This document shows, one piece after another, positions 2,200-61,377 of a DNA stretch of 64,000 bases. The notes beneath the pieces were generated by a model that did no database searches, was not told where the DNA came from, and worked only from the letters and a program-made list of their open reading frames with translations. The position numbers and the translations under genes were made by a program. The stretch's first letter is position 1; every line of letters starts with the position of its first letter. This DNA is from Candidatus Moanibacter sp. (GTDB lineage: Bacteria; Verrucomicrobiota; Verrucomicrobiia; Opitutales; UBA2987), in contig CBDCEW010000100.1 in assembly GCA_965215885.1 (NCBI GenBank), forward strand, positions 96,001-160,000, written 5' to 3'.

Positions 2200-3225
2200 T
2201 CAGAACCACGTGACCGGCTCGACTTTGCCCGATCTCAGCGACTTCATGGCAGCATCGCAGACTGACACATTCCGCGCGCCGAAGGTGGAATTCATCCAGT
2301 TCTCCCGCTTGCCGTCCAACACGTCCAGAAAGTCCCGGACGGTCAGGTTCCAGCCGTGGCGTTTCTGAATGTTGTTGGACTGCGGCAACAGCTCGGGCTC
2401 GGACGTGCGTCGAAGCAGTTTGCCGTCGACCAACGTCCCGTCGGTGCCGTAGGCCTCAAACATCCTGCCAGAGCCGACGCCATCGCCGCGATTGCAGCCG
2501 CTGGTGACGAATACCTTTCCGATCGCCCCGCTCTCGAACTTCATCGAGACAAGGAAGCAGTCCTCGATGGGCATGTTGGAGCCCGATAGACGATTGCCGC
2601 AGCAATAAACCTCCGTGACGGGGTCGTCTTCCATGACGTACAGAACCATATCCAACCCGTGGCAACCGCCGCCGAATAGAATGTTTTGAGGGTTATCCTT
2701 GTCGATCCGCCACGGGGTTGGACACTTGCCTTTCTCGTCGTACCAGTTCCACATGTCGTGAATGTAGAAGCCCGCCAGGTAGAAGATCTTGCCTATCCGC
2801 CCCTCCCTGGCCGCCTGCATCATGGTGCCCCAGGGATGGGAATACCGCATTGTGTAATCGACCATGATGATCTTGCCGGTGCCCTCTTCAGCCTCCAGGA
2901 GCTTTTTAGCGTCTTCCACGCAGGTCGCCAAGGGCTTTTCAATGAGCACGTGGCAGCCCGCCTCCAAGGCGGCCAGGCACTGCGGGCCGTGCAGGTGGTC
3001 CGGCCCGGCGTCGACCACGACGTCCGGCTTGCAGGATTGCAGCACCTTCAAATAGTCAGTGCCAATGATAGCGTCGGGATACTCCCCTTTCAGTTGCTCG
3101 ATGCGTTCCTCTCGCGTTTCCACGAAGGCCACCGGTTCGGCCCGGCCGTCTGCCTGCATCTCGTTCATTACCGTGGTGCCGGCGCTGCCGGTTCCAATAA
3201 TCAATGCACGGTACTTATCGCTCAT
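2200..3225 (-). CDS. Gfo/Idh/MocA family oxidoreductase
   Basis: GTGSAG dinucleotide-binding motif, HVLIEKP, GGCHGLD; 341 aa. Confidence 0.9.
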   Translation of the reverse strand: MSDKYRALIIGTGSAGTTVMNEMQADGRAEPVAFVETREERIEQLKGEYPDAIIGTDYLKVLQSCKPDVVVDAGPDHLHGPQCLAALEAGCHVLIEKPLATCVEDAKKLLEAEEGTGKIIMVDYTMRYSHPWGTMMQAAREGRIGKIFYLAGFYIHDMWNWYDEKGKCPTPWRIDKDNPQNILFGGGCHGLDMVLYVMEDDPVTEVYCCGNRLSGSNMPIEDCFLVSMKFESGAIGKVFVTSGCNRGDGVGSGRMFEAYGTDGTLVDGKLLRRTSEPELLPQSNNIQKRHGWNLTVRDFLDVLDGKRENWMNSTFGARNVSVCDAAMKSLRSGKVEPVTWF

Positions 3226-3248
3226 ATTCTCTGTTCCATTCTCAGTCG

Positions 3249-4844
3249 TCAGTAATCGTCAACCAATTGCGGATCGATGCCAGGCATCGTATCGAGTTTC
3301 CAAATATCAACGGGGACGTCGTTTTCCTGACGCGCCCCGGGAGTGCTGCGTCCGTCGGCGACATATCTCTTGAGCAAAGCGAGCAGCTCTTTGGCCTTGT
3401 CCCGGTTCTCGGTGTGCAGGTTGTGCGTCTCACCCGGATCGGCCCTCATGTCATAGAGTTGAACGAGGGGTAAACCCGCTTTGGCAGCGTCGGCGTCGTC
3501 GTGAGTCCAGCCGCCTGATCCAGGGCAAAGCACCAGCTTCCAGCGGCCGTCACGAATGGCGAACTTGCCCGCAATTGAATGATGCACCACTGTGATGCGG
3601 CCAGTTGCGCCAGTTTCGCGGAACAGTGGCATCATGCTTACGCTGTCCTCGCCTGCGTCATCCGGAAGAGTGGCGCCAACGATTTCGGCGACGGTCGCCA
3701 TCAGGTCGGAGAGGCACACAATGTGGTCGCATTCAGTTCCGGGCCGAATAACGCCGGGCCATCTGGCTACACACGGAATACGGTGACCCCCATCCCAAGC
3801 GTCTGATTTGTAACCTCTGTAGGGACCGCTGGGGAAATGCCCCTGCGCCTCCATCTCTTTTGCCCCAATGTAAGGGGCGCAGCCGTTGTCGCTCGTGAAG
3901 ATAACGAGAGTGTTGTCCGCCACGTTGTATTTTTCCAGCGACCGCAACACGCGACCGAATACGTCATCGGTCTCAATCACCAGGTCAGCGTAGAGGTTGT
4001 TCAGACCGCTCTTGCCGATCCACGGCCTGTTGACCGACAGCGGCGTGTGCGGCGAAGTCATGGGCAAATAGAGGAAGAATGGCTCGTCTGCCGCCGCCAG
4101 GTCTCGGATGTAATCGTCCGCCTTCTTGGCCCAGGTCGGCAGCAGTTGCTCGAAATGCCAGTAAGGCATGGCCGGCCCCGAGTAGCTGGCCAGGTTATCG
4201 CCGACCAGACGGGACGGCAGGAACTCAGATGGAACGCCGACGGTGCGGTCGTCTTCGATGAAGCAATAGGGAGGCCAGTTGGGGATGTCCACGCCGAAGT
4301 AATAGTCGAAGCCGCGCGTGGTTGGCCCACCGGTGGTTGGTTTCGAAAATGCGTTTTGCCAACGTGCCTGTTGTTCGGGCGTAGCTTCCAGGTCGTCATC
4401 AGCTACCTGTGTTGTATCCCGATGACGCTGGAAACCCCTAGGATGAAAATCCTCCGCGTTCGCCTCGAAATCCCATCCCTGTCCCAAATGCCATTTGCCG
4501 ATGCAGGCGGTGTGATAGCCGTGCTGTTTAAGCAACTCTGGTACGGTGAGGCGATCTGCGGCAATCAAGGGATCTCCGTAGAGGCCGACAACCCATTTCT
4601 GCAGGTTCGAGCGCCAATTGTAACGTCCGGTCAGCACGCTGTAGCGCGACGGCGAGCATACTGCCGAACTAGAGTGTGCATCCGTGAACATCATACCCTC
4701 GCTGGCCAGGCGGTCGAGGTTCTGGGTATGGATCTTCCCCTCGGGATTCAAGCACGAGGCGTCGCCGTAGCCCATGTCGTCGACGAAGAAGTAGACGATG
4801 TTTGGTCTGCTTGATTGCGTTGCCAAATCCCGATACACGCCCAA
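3249..4844 (-). CDS. Arylsulfatase (formylglycine-dependent)
   Basis: PNIVYFFVDDMGYGD, CSPSR motif, GKWHLG, FTSDNG, GGHRIP; true start may be TTG 4826. Confidence 0.92.
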   Translation of the reverse strand: MGVYRDLATQSSRPNIVYFFVDDMGYGDASCLNPEGKIHTQNLDRLASEGMMFTDAHSSSAVCSPSRYSVLTGRYNWRSNLQKWVVGLYGDPLIAADRLTVPELLKQHGYHTACIGKWHLGQGWDFEANAEDFHPRGFQRHRDTTQVADDDLEATPEQQARWQNAFSKPTTGGPTTRGFDYYFGVDIPNWPPYCFIEDDRTVGVPSEFLPSRLVGDNLASYSGPAMPYWHFEQLLPTWAKKADDYIRDLAAADEPFFLYLPMTSPHTPLSVNRPWIGKSGLNNLYADLVIETDDVFGRVLRSLEKYNVADNTLVIFTSDNGCAPYIGAKEMEAQGHFPSGPYRGYKSDAWDGGHRIPCVARWPGVIRPGTECDHIVCLSDLMATVAEIVGATLPDDAGEDSVSMMPLFRETGATGRITVVHHSIAGKFAIRDGRWKLVLCPGSGGWTHDDADAAKAGLPLVQLYDMRADPGETHNLHTENRDKAKELLALLKRYVADGRSTPGARQENDVPVDIWKLDTMPGIDPQLVDDY

Positions 4845-18790: not shown

Positions 18791-18973
18791 CATCGCATAA
18801 CTTCATTACTCTGATGTACAGGTAAGCCGTTAGGGGTCAACGGCAAAGCGGAAAAAACCGCGCAATAACCGTCCAGAAAGAACGAAGTATAGTAGGCAAA
18901 ACTCGACGAAGTTCGCTTCGCATTTTCTGAAAAATTTATTGACGAGCCAGATTAGGTGAACATTATTTCACTT

Positions 18974-19306
18974 ATGGAACGCAAGCATGGAACAATACGT
19001 GACCGAATGCGCGAGAAGATGCGAAATTCGTACATGAGCATCCATACCGAAAACGCGTACCTCGGTTGGTGCGGGCGATATGTGCGATTTCACGTCGGTC
19101 GATCGCCGAGTCGGATGGGCGCGACAGAGGTTCAGGCCTTTCTCAATGATCTGACCGTTCACGGCCGGGTAGCGGCGAAAACCCGGAATCAAGCCCTGTG
19201 TGCCATCGTCTACATGTATAAGCAGGTACTTGGACGCGAAATCGGAAAAATCGGAGAGCTGGAGCGCGTTCGGACTCCGAATAAACTGCCTGTAGTATTG
19301 AGGTGA
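18974..19306 (+). pseudogene. intI: Integron integrase, N-terminal third only
   Basis: TENAYLGWCGRYVRFH...EVQAFL...[17 protein letters not shown]...LPVVL, near-identical to the 32290 gene; no catalytic domain. Confidence 0.92.
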
Positions 19307-21091: not shown

Positions 21092-22985
21092 CACGGTATT
21101 TTGATTCTCGGAGCATTAGGTGATGATATTGATGGCCTTATGTAAGTTAAAGACGAAATCATCACAGAGTGCGGGAGTGGATTCAGCGCCCATGGAAGAC
21201 TTGAGGCTGAGAACCAGTTGCCTGCATGCAGCAAGAATTCTGGCTGCGTTATGATTACGGATCATACATCGATCTTCATCGAAGAAGCGATCCCTGGGGT
21301 AATGATTTTTATTTTCGATCGACCAATGGTTGCGAATTTTCGAGAGGAACTGTTGAGGGCTCAAATCGGCGGGATCGAGACTGCTTACGTAGTAAGAGCG
21401 TTCAGAGGAAGGTTCAGCTTTGTTTGGATAATGGAAGGTGCGTTGCACACAGGCGAACTGGCGGGCATGGGGCAGGCCGGCAGAGGGAGCGCTTAGAGAA
21501 TGGGTTGCTATTTGACGTATTTCGAGTCGCCCATGGTCATTGTCCACGGTTTGGTGGAGAAAAAGGGGGTGGAGCTGAAGAGATTCTGAGCGTATTGATG
21601 CATGTTGGGCTGATTGTCTTTAATTTGAATAACATAGTCAGCACTGAGTTCTTCGACGACGATGTGGGCAGTTTCTTTTTGATTATGCATGGCGTCGAAG
21701 GTGAAGGTGGAGCCGTCCAAAATGGGCATCTTTCGCAAGAGAGTCTGGGCGGCGGTGATCGCGTTGGATTTATCGGCGGTAGCGACTTGGGCTAAGGTTT
21801 GAGCGCTTTGGTGATCGACTGCGGCCACCAGGTGCAGAGCCTTTGATTCTTCGGTGTTTGTGCCTTTGAGGGTCTTGCCGTCGACGGCAATATCGCGGGG
21901 CAAACAGCCGTCTTGTAAGCAGATGAATTCGGTGAGGGTTTTATCGAAGAGCTCGGCCTTTACGTTTTGCAAGACCCGATAGAAGACATCATAGCAAGGG
22001 GCCTTATAGCGGCCTGTTTTGGGGTTTTTCCAGGAGCGTAAGGCGCGCAATTGGGCTTGATTGAGATGATGGGCCAGGCGCACGATGCCCTTGAGGGTCT
22101 GTTTGCCGCACATCGTGCCGAGCACAATCATGCTCAGGACCGTGGCGAGCCGATATCTAAGGCCCGCTTTACGACGGAAGTCTTCTATCTGATTGAAGCG
22201 TTCCCACAGGCTGCTCATCTGTTCCACTTTGAGGCAGACCGCATGGGAGTTATCGGTTTCATTGAGCGCCTGGCTCTGTGCCGCGGGCAATGGCCCTGAA
22301 GCGCGCAAAAGCTCAAGGGCATTAGCCTTGAGGGGTTTGACCCAGATCTGCTTGGGACGCTCATGGCGTTGATAGAAATCTTCGCGTTGGCGGCCATATC
22401 CCGCGCTCAAGCCCAAGGGCGTCCACCCGCTCGCTTCGTAGCAAGTGCCCCGGTGAATCTGTGGGTCCACGAACGTTTCCGCTACTAAGGGACGATAGCC
22501 AAAAGCCTCCTGCCAGTGATCGGCTAAGACTCTCAGGCACATACCCAACGTCTTGGAGGCCAAATTTGCAAGATCCACCCCGGGCAAAATCAGAAAACGC
22601 CGGTTCTGTACTACCAGTTTCAATCGTGCATGCCGTTGCGCCCCGTCCCACCCGATCCATTCGTCTCGATCCTTCAGCCGGTAGGATGCGGCCCCCCACA
22701 AGAGCAGGCCCATCCATTGCCCGTCGATCTGCGCCACATAGCGCAGGGTCTCTCCTGCGCTGCCCGCACTGTGTAAATAATGATGTTGTTTCAATAGATC
22801 ATTGAATCGCTCCTGCTCTTCGGGCAGGACCAGACGCAGAGTTAAACGATCTATCGAAGGATTCAGTTGGTAAGATTTTTTGTCTTTCATCCCATCTTAA
22901 CATGACTGATTCCCTCGGGTTTGTTTAGCTCTTTTTTTATCTTCTTGCTTATCAGCTAGTTGCTTCCTGGAATCCTTTTACCCTG
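21092..22985 (-). mobile_element. ISAs1 family element, copy 1 (1894 bp)
   Basis: IRs CAGGGTAAAAGGATTC / CACGGTATTTTGATTC; 10-bp TSD AGTGATTTGG (21082-21091, 22986-22995). Confidence 0.93.
21116..22890 (-). CDS. DUF4338-fused ISAs1 transposase in two frames (-1 shift near 21560-21569)
   Basis: HHYL...RFLILP...NLAS...ETFVDP...GTCY (DUF4338); AVDGKTLKG, TFDAMH, IKDNQP; second frame HGRLEIR...RNHWSIEN...FDEDR. Confidence 0.88.
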
Positions 22986-23184: not shown

Positions 23185-23440
23185 GTCAAACTGCGAATTG
23201 TTGTGTGGAGAAGACGCTTTGAAGGCGTCGGTAACGGGACAGACTGCCGCGGTATGCCATCCGCCTCGTTCAGCTCTTGAGAGCTTGGGTGTCTTGCCTT
23301 GCACGACCTCCGTGGGGTAGGGCAGGGCGATGGAACCGAAAATCCGTGAGGTTTTTGGGTTGAGGTAATCGGTAAGCGCACTGAGGAACGTAGAAGATAA
23401 CATGGGTTGTCAGGCTCGGCGTCTAACGCCCTGCGACGCC
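23185..23440 (-). repeat. ~260-bp diverged direct repeat, copy 2
   Basis: Homologous to 19310-19570; GTTAGAC core near its 5' end on the minus strand. Confidence 0.85.
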
Positions 23441-24213: not shown

Positions 24214-25788
24214 GCCGAACGTTAAAGGCCAGATACGCGACAAATGACAAACAAATTAAAAAAATCGCCTCGTCAGCAGAATCTGTGGGTTATTTCGGGT
24301 TCAGGCAAGTCGCCCATGGTATGAAATAGGGCGATCTTAAGCACTTCGAAGCTCTTAAAGCCGTATGCTTTTCTGATAGTGAGATTTATATTGCGGTTAA
24401 AGCCCTCCACAATGCCGCAGGAAAAGGCCTTTTTGGCCCGAAACCAGTTGAGGATGAGCGGCTCGTGTTTGCGCACCGAGCGCACGAACCTTTTGATCGG
24501 TTTGAGGCGCGAACGCATGGCGCGCGTGCACCATTTTTTCAGATACCATTGGGCCCAGTAGGGACTTTTATAATGCCACAAGAGCTGAAAGCTCTCCTTT
24601 AGTAGATAGGCCCGCACGCTCTTCAGATCGTATTGGAGCACCTCCTTGAGGCGGATCTGTTGGGTGGGGGTGAGATTTGCGGATTTTTGAAGAAACAGTA
24701 TTTGCTTTTGACCAGCACGTTGATGTAGCCGTCCCGTTGCAATCGCCTGGCTTCCGCAGCACGAATCTCATTGAGGGCCTTGTTCAGGTTGGCTACCAAG
24801 TGGAAGCGATCGAGGATGTGCAGCGCCTGGGGTGCCTTTTTCTTGATCACTTTGAGGTAAGGCTTCCACAGATCCGAGCAGACGTAGAGGATCTGGCTGC
24901 TCTTTTGCGCTCCCAATTCCCAGAAAAAACGCAAGAGCGATTTTACGTTGCGCTTATTGAATACGCCCAATAGCCGCCGCCGCCCCTCGTCAAGCTGGTA
25001 GACCACGGTGAGATAGTGATGGCCTCGATGATACTGCACCTCATCGACTCCGATCGCCTCAATCCCGCTCATATCGCGCCGTTTGAGCCCCCAACGCACC
25101 ATCGCCTCGACCGACTCGAAGACGTTGCGCCAGTTTGCGAAAAACCCTTGCCGTCTCTTCCCAGCTCAAGCGCCTCGCCCACTGGGCCAGAAAATTGCAT
25201 TGGCCAACTCAGATGACTCTTGCCCTTGGCCCAGGGCACCTCTTCGACCTTCACCCCGCACCGCCGGCAATTGACCCGCCGCATGCGGTAACGAAAATAC
25301 ACCTTCATCCCCCACAAGGGCACAAATTCAAAATGCCTCGCCTCGCTCATGTGGTCGTAGCCGCTGGCCGTCCGGCCACACCCCGAACAGCACACCCGAC
25401 TATTCTTGCGCGGCTCAATCTGCACCACAATCGCCTCCACCGATTTCACCATTTCCATACTCGCCTTTGCGTAAACAAAGCTCTTTAGCAATTCAGTAGC
25501 GTTTTGATGAGCACTGGGTCCTCCGTGTTCAGGATGTATTTTCGGTACTACTTTCATCCTCGGAACGGCCCGGTGCTTCAACCTTTCAATCCCATATGCA
25601 AAGAAAACACCGACCAGCCCCTCCGGCTGTGGAGGAGCGGGATTCAGGGCAGCGCCCTGACTTCTCCTTGTGCTCACCGACTCTATTTCCTCTTGTAAGC
25701 GACGTTACCCACCCACAGATTCTGCTGTAGACCCAAAAAATCTAAAACAAGAACCTTACACCGCGTTATCTGGGCCGACTTGTTAGGT
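24214..25788 (-). other. attC site split by ISL3
   Basis: Left arm ACCTAAC...ccagataacgcg (25788-25735) and right arm cgcgtatctgg...GTTCGGC (24266-24214). Confidence 0.85.
24267..25734 (-). mobile_element. ISL3 family element with multiply frameshifted transposase
   Basis: IRs share CAGCAGAATCTGTGGGT; 8-bp TSD AAAAAATC; CSGC/CRRC zinc finger, IGVDE, LDRFH, VEGFN..I...RKAYGF spread over three frames. Confidence 0.92.
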
Positions 25789-26945: not shown

Positions 26946-27029
26946 GCCGAACGCCACCATAACCGACCGGAGCACGCAGTGCGGAGGTCCAGCCAGCTTT
27001 GCTGGCGATGGTTGATGGCTTTGTTAGGC
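26946..27029 (-). other. attC site
   Basis: GCCTAAC-aaagccatcaacc...ggttatggtggc-GTTCGGC. Confidence 0.85.
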
Positions 27030-27037
27030 AACACCCT

Positions 27038-27460
27038 CTACACCCTAAACGTTCTAATTCGATCCGGTTTTAGGTTTAGGACACGGAGCACTTCTGGGTT
27101 ACTACGCCAGAACTCAAGAGTTTTCTGATTTCCTTGGTTGGACAAATCCCAGTACTTAGATGACAATTTTTCCACCAGCTCGATCCCACCTTCTTTGTGA
27201 ATTGAAGCTAGTCCATCAAACGCAACCCAACCCTCCTGCTCGCCAACATTATTGATGACGAGTACAGATATTGATGGGTTGACGCGTATTCTAGCCAATT
27301 TTGGTGAGGTCTTATTCGAAAACATGAAAACCGACTCTCCATCCCATTCAAACCACACAGGGACAGAAATTGGTGCACCGCTCTCTGAGAGAGTCGTAAT
27401 GATTGCGTATCGCGGCTCCGAAAGAAAACGGTCACGTTCCTCAACTGTCATTTTTGCCAT
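27038..27460 (-). CDS. Pyridoxamine 5'-phosphate oxidase-like (split-barrel flavin/F420-binding) protein
   Basis: ERDRFLSEPRYAIITT...P.SVPVWFEWDG...SPKLARIRVNP; RBS AGGAGG. Confidence 0.85.
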   Translation of the reverse strand: MAKMTVEERDRFLSEPRYAIITTLSESGAPISVPVWFEWDGESVFMFSNKTSPKLARIRVNPSISVLVINNVGEQEGWVAFDGLASIHKEGGIELVEKLSSKYWDLSNQGNQKTLEFWRSNPEVLRVLNLKPDRIRTFRV

Positions 27461-27482
27461 TGAAATTCCTCCTATTCTGACT

Positions 27483-27633
27483 GCCTAATTCGGCGCTCAC
27501 CAACTTCGCGCTGGACTGTAGCAAGCTTGCTTGCGGAAGGGAAGCGGGAATGTTGGTGCAGTGTCCTGGTTCCGCGGTGCGCGTAGCGCGACGCGGGAAC
27601 AGGACACTGCACGAAGTGAGCGCCGAATTCCTG
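27483..27633 (-). other. Branched attC-like site with non-canonical AAT/ATT core (ORF-less cassette)
   Basis: CAGGAAT-tcggcgctcac...gtgagcgccga-ATTAGGC; both half-cores match the neighbouring cassette ends. Confidence 0.65.
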
Positions 27634-27654
27634 CGGAGGAGCGAAGCGGATCCG

Positions 27655-27717
27655 CAGGAACGTTAAAACTCTCACACGACGGCGCTAGCCGGCGTTGTGA
27701 GCAGTGCTTGGTTAGAC
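27655..27717 (-). other. attC site
   Basis: GTCTAAC...ctcaca...tgtgag...GTTCCTG. Confidence 0.85.
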
Positions 27718-30249: not shown

Positions 30250-32143
30250 CAGGGTAAAAGGATTCCAGGAAGCAACTAGCTGATAAGCAAGAAGATAAAA
30301 AAAGAGCTAAACAAACCCGAGGGAATCAGTCATGTTAAGATGGGATGAAAGACAAAAAATCTTACCAACTGAATCCTTCGATAGATCGTTTAACTCTGCG
30401 TCTGGTCCTGCCCGAAGAGCAGGAGCGATTCAATGATCTATTGAAACAACATCATTATTTACACAGTGCGGGCAGCGCAGGAGAGACCCTGCGCTATGTG
30501 GCGCAGATCGACGGGCAATGGATGGGCCTGCTCTTGTGGGGGGCCGCATCCTACCGGCTGAAGGATCGAGACGAATGGATCGGGAGGGACGGGGCGCAAC
30601 GGCATGCACGATTGAAACTGGTAGTACAGAACCGGCGTTTTCTGATTTTGCCCGGGGTGGATCTTGCAAATTTGGCCTCCAAGACGTTGGGTATGTGCCT
30701 GAGAGTCTTAGCCGATCACTGGCAGGAGGCTTTTGGCTATCGTCCCTTAGTAGCGGAAACGTTCGTGGACCCACAGATTCACCGGGGCACTTGCTACGAA
30801 GCGAGCGGGTGGACGCCCTTGGGCTTGAGCGCGGGATATGGCCGCCAACGCGAAGATTTCTATCAACGCCATGAGCGTCCCAAGCAGATCTGGGTCAAAC
30901 CCCTCAAGGCTAATGCCCTTGAGCTTTTGCGCGCTTCAGGGCCATTGCCCGCGGCACAGAGCCAGGCGCTCAATGAAACCGATAACTCCCATGCGGTCTG
31001 CCTCAAAGTGGAACAGATGAGCAGCCTGTGGGAACGCTTCAATCAGATAGAAGACTTCCGTCGTAAAGCGGGCCTTAGATATCGGCTCGCCACGGTCCTG
31101 AGCATGATTGTGCTCGGCACGATGTGCGGCAAACAGACCCTCAAGGGCATCGTGCGCCTGGCCCATCATCTCAATCAAGCCCAATTGCGCGCCTTACGCT
31201 CCTGGAAAAACCCCAAAACAGGCCGCTATAAGGCCCCTTGCTATGATGTCTTCTATCGGGTCTTGCAAAACGTAAAGGCCGAGCTCTTCGATAAAACCCT
31301 CACCGAATTCATCTGCTTACAAGACGGCTGTTTGCCCCGCGATATTGCCGTCGACGGCAAGACCCTCAAAGGCACAAACACCGAAGAATCAAAGGCTCTG
31401 CACCTGGTGGCCGCAGTCGATCACCAAAGCGCTCAAACCTTAGCCCAAGTCGCTACCGCCGATAAATCCAACGCGATCACCGCCGCCCAGACTCTCTTGC
31501 GAAAGATGCCCATTTTGGACGGCTCCACCTTCACCTTCGACGCCATGCATAATCAAAAAGAAACTGCCCACATCGTCGTCGAAGAACTCAGTGCTGACTA
31601 TGTTATTCAAATTAAAGACAATCAGCCCAACATGCATCAATACGCTCAGAATCTCTTCAGCTCCACCCCCTTTTTCTCCACCAAACCGTGGACAATGACC
31701 ATGGGCGACTCGAAATACGTCAAATAGCAACCCATTCTCTAAGCGCTCCCTCTGCCGGCCTGCCCCATGCCCGCCAGTTCGCCTGTGTGCAACGCACCTT
31801 CCATTATCCAAACAAAGCTGAACCTTCCTCTGAACGCTCTTACTACGTAAGCAGTCTCGATCCCGCCGATTTGAGCCCTCAACAGTTCCTCTCGAAAATT
31901 CGCAACCATTGGTCGATCGAAAATAAAAATCATTACCCCAGGGATCGCTTCTTCGATGAAGATCGATGTATGATCCGTAATCATAACGCAGCCAGAATTC
32001 TTGCTGCATGCAGGCAACTGGTTCTCAGCCTCAAGTCTTCCATGGGCGCTGAATCCACTCCCGCACTCTGTGATGATTTCGTCTTTAACTTACATAAGGC
32101 CATCAATATCATCACCTAATGCTCCGAGAATCAAAATACCGTG
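30250..32143 (+). mobile_element. ISAs1 family element, copy 2 (1894 bp), no target duplication
   Basis: Near-identical inverted copy of 21092-22985 (one visible W>R change at ~30585); flanks ATCGCCTACC and GTGCAATAAC differ. Confidence 0.93.
30345..32119 (+). CDS. DUF4338-fused ISAs1 transposase in two frames (-1 shift near 31666-31675)
   Basis: Same motifs and same CCCCCTTTTT junction as copy 1. Confidence 0.88.
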
Positions 32144-32289: not shown

Positions 32290-33222
32290 ATGCGTGAGAA
32301 GATTCGAAATTCGTATATGAGTATTCATACGGAAAACGCGTATATCGGCTGGTGTGAGCGGTATGTACGATTTCACCGCGGTCGAGCACCAAGCCAGATG
32401 GGGGCAACCGAGGTGCAAGCCTTTTTAAACCACCTGACGGTTCGCGGTCGGGTCGCGGCGAAAACGCGGAATCAAGCACTGTGCGCCATCGTCTACATGT
32501 ATAAGACGGTACTTGGGCGTGAAATCGGAAAGATCGGAGAACTGGAGCGTGTTCGGACTCCGAACAAGCTGCCGGTGGTATTGAGCGACGAAGAGGTTCG
32601 TCGCCTGTTTCTGGGGCTCGATGGAATCTATTTGCTAATCGCTAAATTGATGTATGGAAGCGGGTTACGAATCTCTGAATGCGTCCGGTTGCGCGTCAAA
32701 GACCTAGATTTCGGAATGCGACAGATAATCGTGCGCGATGGAAAAGGCCGCAAGGATCGCATTACGCTATTACCGGAAACCCAACGCGCTCCGTTACAGG
32801 AGCATCTCTCGTTTGTTCACCTTCAACACGAAAGAGACCTTAAGAATGGGAATGGTGACGTCTACCTGCCGTTTGCTCTGGCAAGAAAATATCCGCGCGC
32901 GCTGCGTGAGTGGTGCTGGCAATATGTATTTCCGGCGAAAGAGCACTCACACGATCCTCGAAGTGGAGCTTATCGCCGGCACCACATCAGCCCAAAGGCG
33001 GTACAGGACGCATTTCGCCGGGCACTGAAAGCAACGGGCATCGCTAAACCCGCGACCCCGCACACTCTGCGTCACAGCTTCGCCACTAGGCTGCTTGAAA
33101 ACGGATACGATATTCGAACCCTTCAGGAGCTGTTGGGACATTCTGATGTTTCCACGACGATGGTCTACACTCACGTGCTCAACCGAGGGGGGCGTGGAGT
33201 CGTAAGTCCGGTGGATCTGTAG
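32290..33222 (+). CDS. intI: Integron integrase (tyrosine recombinase)
   Basis: [19 protein letters not shown], IntI-specific insert ([12 protein letters not shown]...WCWQYVFP...RRHH), [25 protein letters not shown]. Confidence 0.97.
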
Positions 33223-61262: not shown

Positions 61263-61377
61263 GCACCAGACCGCTGCACCAACATTCCTGATTCTCCTCC
61301 GCAAGCAACCTCCGCTTGCTATCGAGGTCAAGAGTTTGCCACGATCCAGCAGAAAGTTGGTGATCGCCAAATTAGCC
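61263..61377 (+). other. Degenerate attC-like element related to 27483-27633
   Basis: ctgcaccaacattcc...ccgcaagcaa...tccagc...aagttggtga.cgcc.aATTAGCC. Confidence 0.55.

Follow-up and report, generated by a model that had tools for sequence, protein, structure and literature searches.

Comparison of relatives points to a mobile family of gene-less, cassette-like elements with a natural ATT core in integron arrays

A cassette array of Candidatus Moanibacter sp. holds a 172-nt unit without a gene that ends in an ATT core, and its relatives, judged by their sequences, form a real, mobile, gene-less and cassette-like family in which this core occurs naturally. The unit lies in the 64,000-nt stretch of contig CBDCEW010000100.1 that was analysed here as a whole (the window). 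Its parts, its neighbours and a second, damaged family member are given below by window position; a downward arrow marks the crossover throughout.

32290..33222, plus strand: integron integrase gene intI, full length, divergent from the array
27655..27717, minus strand: canonical attC of the upstream DUF2513 cassette, with AAC, 5 nt and an L'' with an extra G on one side and L', 6 nt and GTT on the other; crossover G at 27661
27489..27660, minus strand: the 172-nt unit without a gene; it starts just behind the upstream crossover G and closes with its own crossover A
27628..27660, minus strand: hairpin H1, 10-bp stem, pairing the start of the unit with its own R''; predicted R-box arm in the excised circle
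27616..27633, minus strand: outer R'' CAGGAAT (27633-27627) and left arm of the outer stem, recognized by pairing and covariation
27556..27612, minus strand: side arm B-H2-B', with an inner AAC at 27571-27569 and an attC-like L'' with an extra G at 27559
27501..27555, minus strand: variable X arm, with an extended -10-like TG-n-TACAGT at 27523-27515 that faces the next cassette
27487..27500, minus strand: outer stem, right arm, together with the non-canonical core A↓TT, whose crossover A is at 27489
26946..27488, minus strand: downstream PPOX/pyridoxamine-oxidase-like cassette, starting with TTAGGC; gene at 27460-27038, R'' GCCTAAC at 27029-27023
61263..61377, plus strand: decayed right half of a family member, off-array; it seems to be joined to an ordinary attC's left half

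The unit stands between two ordinary cassettes of an intI-linked array, 4.6 kb from the integrase gene, whose product scored 431 bits against TIGR02249 (cut-off 265) and aligned over its full length with VchIntIA (PDB 2A3V, E 9e-83). Each motif that the original prediction had quoted for the unit was found in its place on the minus strand. The left end reads G↓TTCCTG, with the G at 27661, and the right end A↓TTAGGC, with the A at 27489; TTAGGC is complementary to the R'' of the PPOX-like cassette, in keeping with the proposal that the site behaves as a recombination junction. The DUF2513 cassette recurs on another contig of the same genome (C4) with a different cassette next to it, and in an RNA run (X8) with yet another neighbour, and the left boundary of the unit is therefore a real cassette boundary. 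Moreover, run X3, which belongs to another study than run X1, gave a contig that crosses the whole unit with no differences inside it. One RNA contig jumped from 27416 to 27651, with a depth of 2.7 and a side of 28 bases, which is too weak to use. No ORF of at least 70 aa was found in the unit, which is overlapped by short ORFs only, and the lengths of its relatives differ out of frame.

The array runs on the minus strand and is broken up by insertion sequences. Two ORFs for an ISAs1-like transposase, copies inverted relative to each other and each with a Druantia DruA-like domain (PF14236) at the N terminus, lie at 21508-22890 (minus strand) and 30345-31727 (plus strand); one of them separates intI from the first cassette and covers the place where attI would be expected. 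A fragmented ISL3 transposase (24273-25780) comes straight after an R''-like CCTAAC and apparently splits an attC. Inside the array there is also a second, truncated 5' fragment of intI (18968-19306) with its own promoter/attI-like region; the repeat before this fragment recurs at about 23380-23440, possibly reflecting tandem or duplicated integron platforms.

Folding the bottom strand had been proposed as a check on the branched site, and the unit was found to fold far beyond chance, at -68.3 kcal/mol (z = -10.65), a stability that 0 of 200 shuffles reached; all folding energies given here are predictions for naked DNA at 37 °C. The fold combines an outer inverted repeat of 14 bp (27629-27616 with 27500-27487) with a 13-bp inner stem in the side arm (27612-27600 with 27568-27556). 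In the outer register the spacer is fully paired and there is no extrahelical base.

Searches of related genomes, GTDB contigs and metagenomes yielded relatives from 18 genomes or metagenomes, ranging from 49 to 173 nt and built on a common plan. On the left, the crossover is followed by H1, the outer R'' (AAT, ATT, AAC or ATC), a 5-nt spacer and GCTCAC; then come the optional B-H2-B' arm and the optional X arm; and on the right GTGAGC, a 5-nt spacer and the core. The B-H2-B' arm is absent from L042 and from two minis of L037, all of them array-borne. The element was found in 1 of 8 other genomes of the same taxonomic family, in 8 of 301 genomes of the Kiritimatiellae class and in 5 of 401 genomes of the phylum, with one carrier genome belonging to both of the last two sets. 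A BLAST-type search of 301 genomes of the source genome's own class gave, besides the source genome, only two short and weak matches. The family is therefore patchy. Searches of viral contigs and of plasmids gave 0 matches to the element. The first searches were anchored on the X arm and some later ones on the left part, while the right core was absent from every search pattern. Some genomes and samples contributed several loci, and the p-values given below are overstated as a result.

Two loci were dropped as duplicates (L075 of L043, L076 of L030), and one from Leptolyngbya (L017) as a chance match within a gene. The 'simple' forms L016, L019 and L038 were considered as a separate ancestor and rejected, as they resemble H1/H2 hybrids that arose by deletion or assembly collapse. 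Similarly, we rejected the left part as an independent inverted mini-attC, since its L pairing is good in the window copy only.

The 6.4-Mb source genome carries about eight copies, most of which are decayed right halves off arrays. The copy at 61263-61377 lacks H1 and the left outer arm. It does end in A↓TTAGCC, as originally described, but the gene that was said to start after it is not a real one: the frame is a 40-aa ORF overlapping the end of a convergent gene, and downstream we found neither an ORF of at least 60 aa nor a GGCTAAC. Elsewhere in this genome, one family copy is split by an insertion sequence of about 1.9 kb (C105:280354-282429), and a right half stands back to back with an inverted left half of the G↓AT type, followed by the same insertion-sequence end (L008, C101:98801-99046).

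We then compared the ends of the family members. Among 30 right ends, a set that leaves aside the decayed L077, L078, L010 and dispersed source-genome halves, the core is ATT in 25, GTT in four and ATA in one. Downstream sequence sufficed for 28 right ends, and in 13 of them the exact complement of the first seven bases after the crossover was found beside a stop codon, that is, as the R'' of the next cassette; permutation gave a mean of 1.1, and 0 of 10000 permutations reached 13. The other 15 of 28 showed no exact match under this strict rule. At the left ends (n = 33), the preceding base is G in 29 and A in four. A simple detector called an upstream attC at 24 of these 33 ends but at only 7 of 495 control positions. 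On inspection, two of its calls were spurious and three sites had been missed, giving 25 attC sites, one attI-position site (L040a, which follows a divergent integrase gene at its 5' end), six sites off arrays and one contig edge, so that about 26 of 33 left ends fall at attC/attI crossovers. As judged from these ends, the boundaries of family members in arrays are IntI crossover positions. The flanks also show that insertion takes place between R and WT (G↓TT, G↓AT, A↓TT) without duplicating the target, the sites being attCs, the one attI position and a few places in chromosomes.

Several flanks and neighbours of the relatives had features of their own. The sequence AAT[CA]ACTT precedes the crossover in three left flanks (L002:1677-1690, L040:2667-2680 and L044:1544-1557); it may be an attI consensus, since L040 adjoins an integrase gene, in which case L044 would represent an attI with A↓TT. 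In L049 (about 1420-1477), an ordinary attC with an AAC R'' has A for G at the element junction, possibly by heteroduplex repair or by preference for a mutant site. A different gene-less element, a fully paired stem with an ATC/GTT core, lies just 5' of a mini member in L037 (about 1770-1880) and may represent a second family. L038 (about 1530-1640) contains, in reversed orientation and after the AA of the downstream R'', a sequence which we take to resemble a group II intron 3' end. A probable IS91-type element in L018 (about 3215-3560) carries a SAM-like phage-integrase gene that runs up to the upstream attC AAC; the MAG is labelled Chloroflexia, which may reflect misbinning or transfer.

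The outer 14-bp stem is conserved by compensation. In alignment A1 it is 96.9% paired, as against 20-46% for slid controls; 219 of 228 cells in the 19 complete elements are Watson-Crick pairs, and three pairs are doubly compensated (0 of 500 shuffles). One relative has AAC/GTT in place of AAT/ATT, which is a compensated core. Moreover, element start and R'' go together, TT with AAY in 16 cases and AT with ATY in 10, with none discordant; the start was found by complementarity, yet it coincides with the base after the crossover. Both the start of the element and its first base are thus reflected in the internal R''. As the original prediction supposed, branched units with an ATT core and no gene do form a natural family: its members sit at crossovers, match the next R'' and covary in the outer stem. 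Homologs that carried GTT or lay mostly outside arrays would have spoken against it, and we found GTT in 4 of 30 right cores and intact copies largely within arrays.

The unit offers a second register. An inner AAC/ATC with an extra-base L'' and an imperfect spacer is present in 17 of 19 elements. In the window copy this register is about 24 kcal/mol worse than the outer one (inner fold P about 1e-17), and L042 and the two L037 minis, which lack it, still lie in arrays, with an exact downstream R'' in two of three. We therefore favour the outer register as the candidate working site, even though it has neither an extrahelical base nor an unpaired spacer. Loss of all extrahelical bases has been reported to lower VCR2 recombination 50-fold and to leave attCaadA7 and attCoxa2 largely unaffected (PMC5027507).

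Evidence of movement came from several carriers. In one Pontiella MAG, four near-identical copies stand before four different cassettes. A 49-nt member lies at A↓TT inside a relE-like gene with no residue lost, the two pieces corresponding to residues 1-21 and 22 onward of an intact homologue, and the member in L050 lies at A↓TT directly after a tRNA-like gene. Targets of the A↓TT type account for 3 of 6 insertions off arrays as against 1 of 26 in arrays (Fisher p = 0.015), with an off-array sample of six, two of which share an attI-like motif. In the experiments of Frumerie et al. (PMC2811028, Table 4), compensated ATT x ATT recombined at the wild-type level and ATT x GTT at 0.003 of that level; the same work describes GAT as well tolerated and an identical first base as necessary in IntI partners. 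For canonical cassettes inserted off arrays, the consensus is GWT (bioRxiv 2022.09.11.507474). Our analysis suggests that the natural pattern, with its A↓TT targets off arrays, fits this first-base chemistry of IntI.

An IntI above the cut-off was found in 11 of 13 carrier genomes, compared with 80 of 151 in the background (p about 0.02-0.04). However, two carrier MAGs have no detectable intI, and one of them holds the relE insertion, which weighs against a clean IntI case; and the majority of insertions in arrays are at G sites, for which data on IntI1 indicate a penalty of about 300-fold. Among the contigs of eight runs we found no circle junction and no empty site, which for contigs is not proof of absence. 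Many of the integrases in the 80 of 151 Kiritimatiellae-class genomes have long N-terminal extensions (frames of 430-580 aa).

The predicted folds differ between the free and the integrated forms. For 16 of 18 elements, all three core positions on the bottom strand of the circle are predicted to be paired with P ≥ 0.9; the two failures are GTT-ended members with an ATT R''. In the integrated form the first core pair never exceeds a predicted P of 0.59, with H1 competing, and in 13 of 13 cases the upstream attC has a lower predicted R-box probability when the element is present than when the site is emptied in silico.

Taken together, we consider it probable that the 172-nt, gene-less element with an A crossover is a selfish mini-cassette moved by IntI, with a circle predicted to pair with itself as a dumbbell. 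In the circle, H1 and the outer stem would form one continuous R box, a paired spacer and an L box, with no extrahelical base. IntI would place this circle into attI or attC sites with G↓TT at the cost of the first-base mismatch, and into chromosomal A↓TT sites at no such cost. After integration, H1 is predicted to compete for the R boxes of both the unit and the upstream attC, and together with the element's A it may then hinder separate excision of the neighbouring cassettes. The extended -10 motif before the crossover would transcribe the next gene, as optional cargo and not as the core function.

A bolder version would make the family a viroid-like ssDNA dumbbell parasite of integrons. H1, the outer stem and the upstream attC, as three adjacent stems, would pre-fold into a four-way structure like a Holliday junction, which IntI could resolve without a first-base swap, so that the element would escape the identity rule on excision. 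Its orthogonal A core would let it colonise chromosomal A↓TT sites, while excision of both neighbouring cassettes would be switched off and promoters seeded. We regard this full combination as doubtful.

The X arm allows a different view of what the element is for. Of the 19 complete elements, 14 carry the motif TG-n-[TC]A-nnn-T at a distance of 22-26 nt before the core, as against 6% in the background; this count is biased because the first searches were anchored on the X arm. In the dispersed right halves of the source genome, [TC]A-nnn-T is kept in seven of seven, with variable middle bases. These halves persist 5' of genes, and gene-less cassettes with promoter activity have already been published (PMC6557892; bioRxiv 2023.11.21.568050). 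The family could thus consist of promoter cassettes that benefit the host and are moved by IntI, whose -10 drives the next cassette and whose ATT locks promoter and gene together, so that the pair moves jointly between the GTT sites on either side. However, left-anchored searches gave the motif in only 4 of 7 complete elements and in none of the minis, and no full -35/-10 pair was matched in the window. We therefore see the promoter role of the X arm as a plausible secondary function, and the host-beneficial cassette as possible but somewhat unlikely, behind the IntI-moved selfish mini-cassette.

The element could also be the non-autonomous passenger of an enzyme other than IntI (IS110/IS1111, IS91, IS200-type HUH or a reverse transcriptase) that targets the attC crossover base. 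It is hairpin-rich, has off-array copies and, in the carrier of the gene-internal insertion, occurs with no detectable intI; an IS110 gene lies 1.5 kb from the copy at 61263, and attC sites here do draw parasites, such as the presumed group II intron end of L038 and the ISL3 piece after an R'' at about 25780. But no terminal inverted repeats or target duplications were found, several members combining a left G↓AT with a right A↓TT, and the flanks vary on both sides except for R↓WT, the consensus of IntI secondary sites (GWT; bioRxiv 2022.09.11.507474). Moreover, the start and the first base covary with the internal R'' in just the way they do in a cassette. Such an enzyme thus appears improbable.

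Slightly less probable still is a fused relic of two tiny ordinary cassettes, in which the true attC would be the inner AAC register, inactivated by a G-to-A change and carried along passively. This would account for the inner AAC/ATC with its extra-base L'' and imperfect spacer, for H1 and H2 loops like those of ordinary attC sites, and for the GTT at the end of four relatives. It does not agree with the recurrence of the same ATT-ended sequence before many different cassettes, four of them in one genome, with the members of L042 and L037 that do without the inner register and yet lie in arrays next to a matching downstream R'', with the negligible probability of the inner fold in the window copy, or with compensation in the outer stem.

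A structured non-coding RNA, with hairpins selected as RNA, is highly improbable: the top-strand RNA fold is strong (z = -10.4) and 18 of 42 consensus pairs show a double change, but Rfam gave 0 families at the gathering threshold and only sub-threshold matches to miRNA hairpins, the two inner arms vary or can be absent altogether (49-173 nt), one stem is complete only across the circular junction, and the wobble asymmetry of 3 to 3 favours neither strand. Of the earlier suggestion of a selfish or RNA-encoding empty cassette, the selfish part is likely, whereas the RNA part found no support in either Rfam or the wobble count.

We further compared the family with known systems. It resembles the attC sites and cassettes of sedentary integrons in its crossover position, in an R'' that matches its own start, in 5-nt spacers, in loop motifs and in its association with intI. 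In contrast, its first base is A in 25 of 30, the terminal structure branches, the working register contains neither an unpaired spacer nor an extrahelical base, and the cassette body amounts to no more than a hairpin of 20-35 nt. The complete attC entries that we examined in the curated IntegronFinder file all end in a GTT core (PMC4889954, supplement 4), and Frumerie et al. called the conservation of the GTT triplet absolute (PMC2811028). The conserved AAC/GTT triplet is replaced in most of the family, and the extrahelical base and unpaired central spacer are missing from its outer register, so the family is not an ordinary attC.

Like the ORF-less promoter cassettes of Vibrionaceae and Treponema, as these are described, it has no gene and a promoter-like motif towards the next cassette; the family itself is nearly all recombination site, with a non-GTT core and an optional promoter motif. 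Off-array insertion at a three-base core, including gene disruption, is shared with the attG secondary insertions and SALIN, although the targets of the family include A↓TT (3 of 6) and those of canonical cassettes follow GWT (bioRxiv 2022.09.11.507474). The engineered attC-ATT mutants (PMC2811028) have the same compensated AAT/ATT core and the same partner preference set by the first base, whereas the family is natural and spreading and its array insertions are mostly at mismatched G sites. Other unusual cassette sites, those derived from attI as described in PMC12901181, differ from it.

MITEs, REPs, IS1111-attC elements and group IIC-attC introns are likewise small, hairpin-rich and non-coding or attC-associated, but the family sits at the R' crossover and has no terminal inverted repeats, duplication, tetranucleotide or intron domains. 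Its inverted repeat begins about 30 nt inside the left end, with G↓AT on the left and A↓TT on the right, which sets it apart from a MITE. REPs carry a GTAG/GGAG tetranucleotide at the hairpin foot and occur in many intergenic copies; here there is no GTAG/GGAG end, and copies number about eight in 6.4 Mb. Neither an intron domain V nor an Rfam family was found in the unit. We found no published description of such an ATT-core family in a literature search that covered a minority of the subscription journals.

The GTT triplet has been treated as the one invariant of integron sites, although in laboratory work nothing beyond a shared first base of the two partners proved to matter, and the ATT family departs from it. 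In surveys that rely on GTT, units of this kind could be merged with the following cassette. The family is a natural experiment on the first-base rule, with a compensated A core that spreads and finds A↓TT targets off arrays, and it provides ready substrates for IntI acting across a first-base mismatch and on sites without extrahelical bases or an unpaired spacer. It also suggests that minimal selfish cassettes exist in integron arrays, where they could lock neighbouring cassettes or supply promoters.
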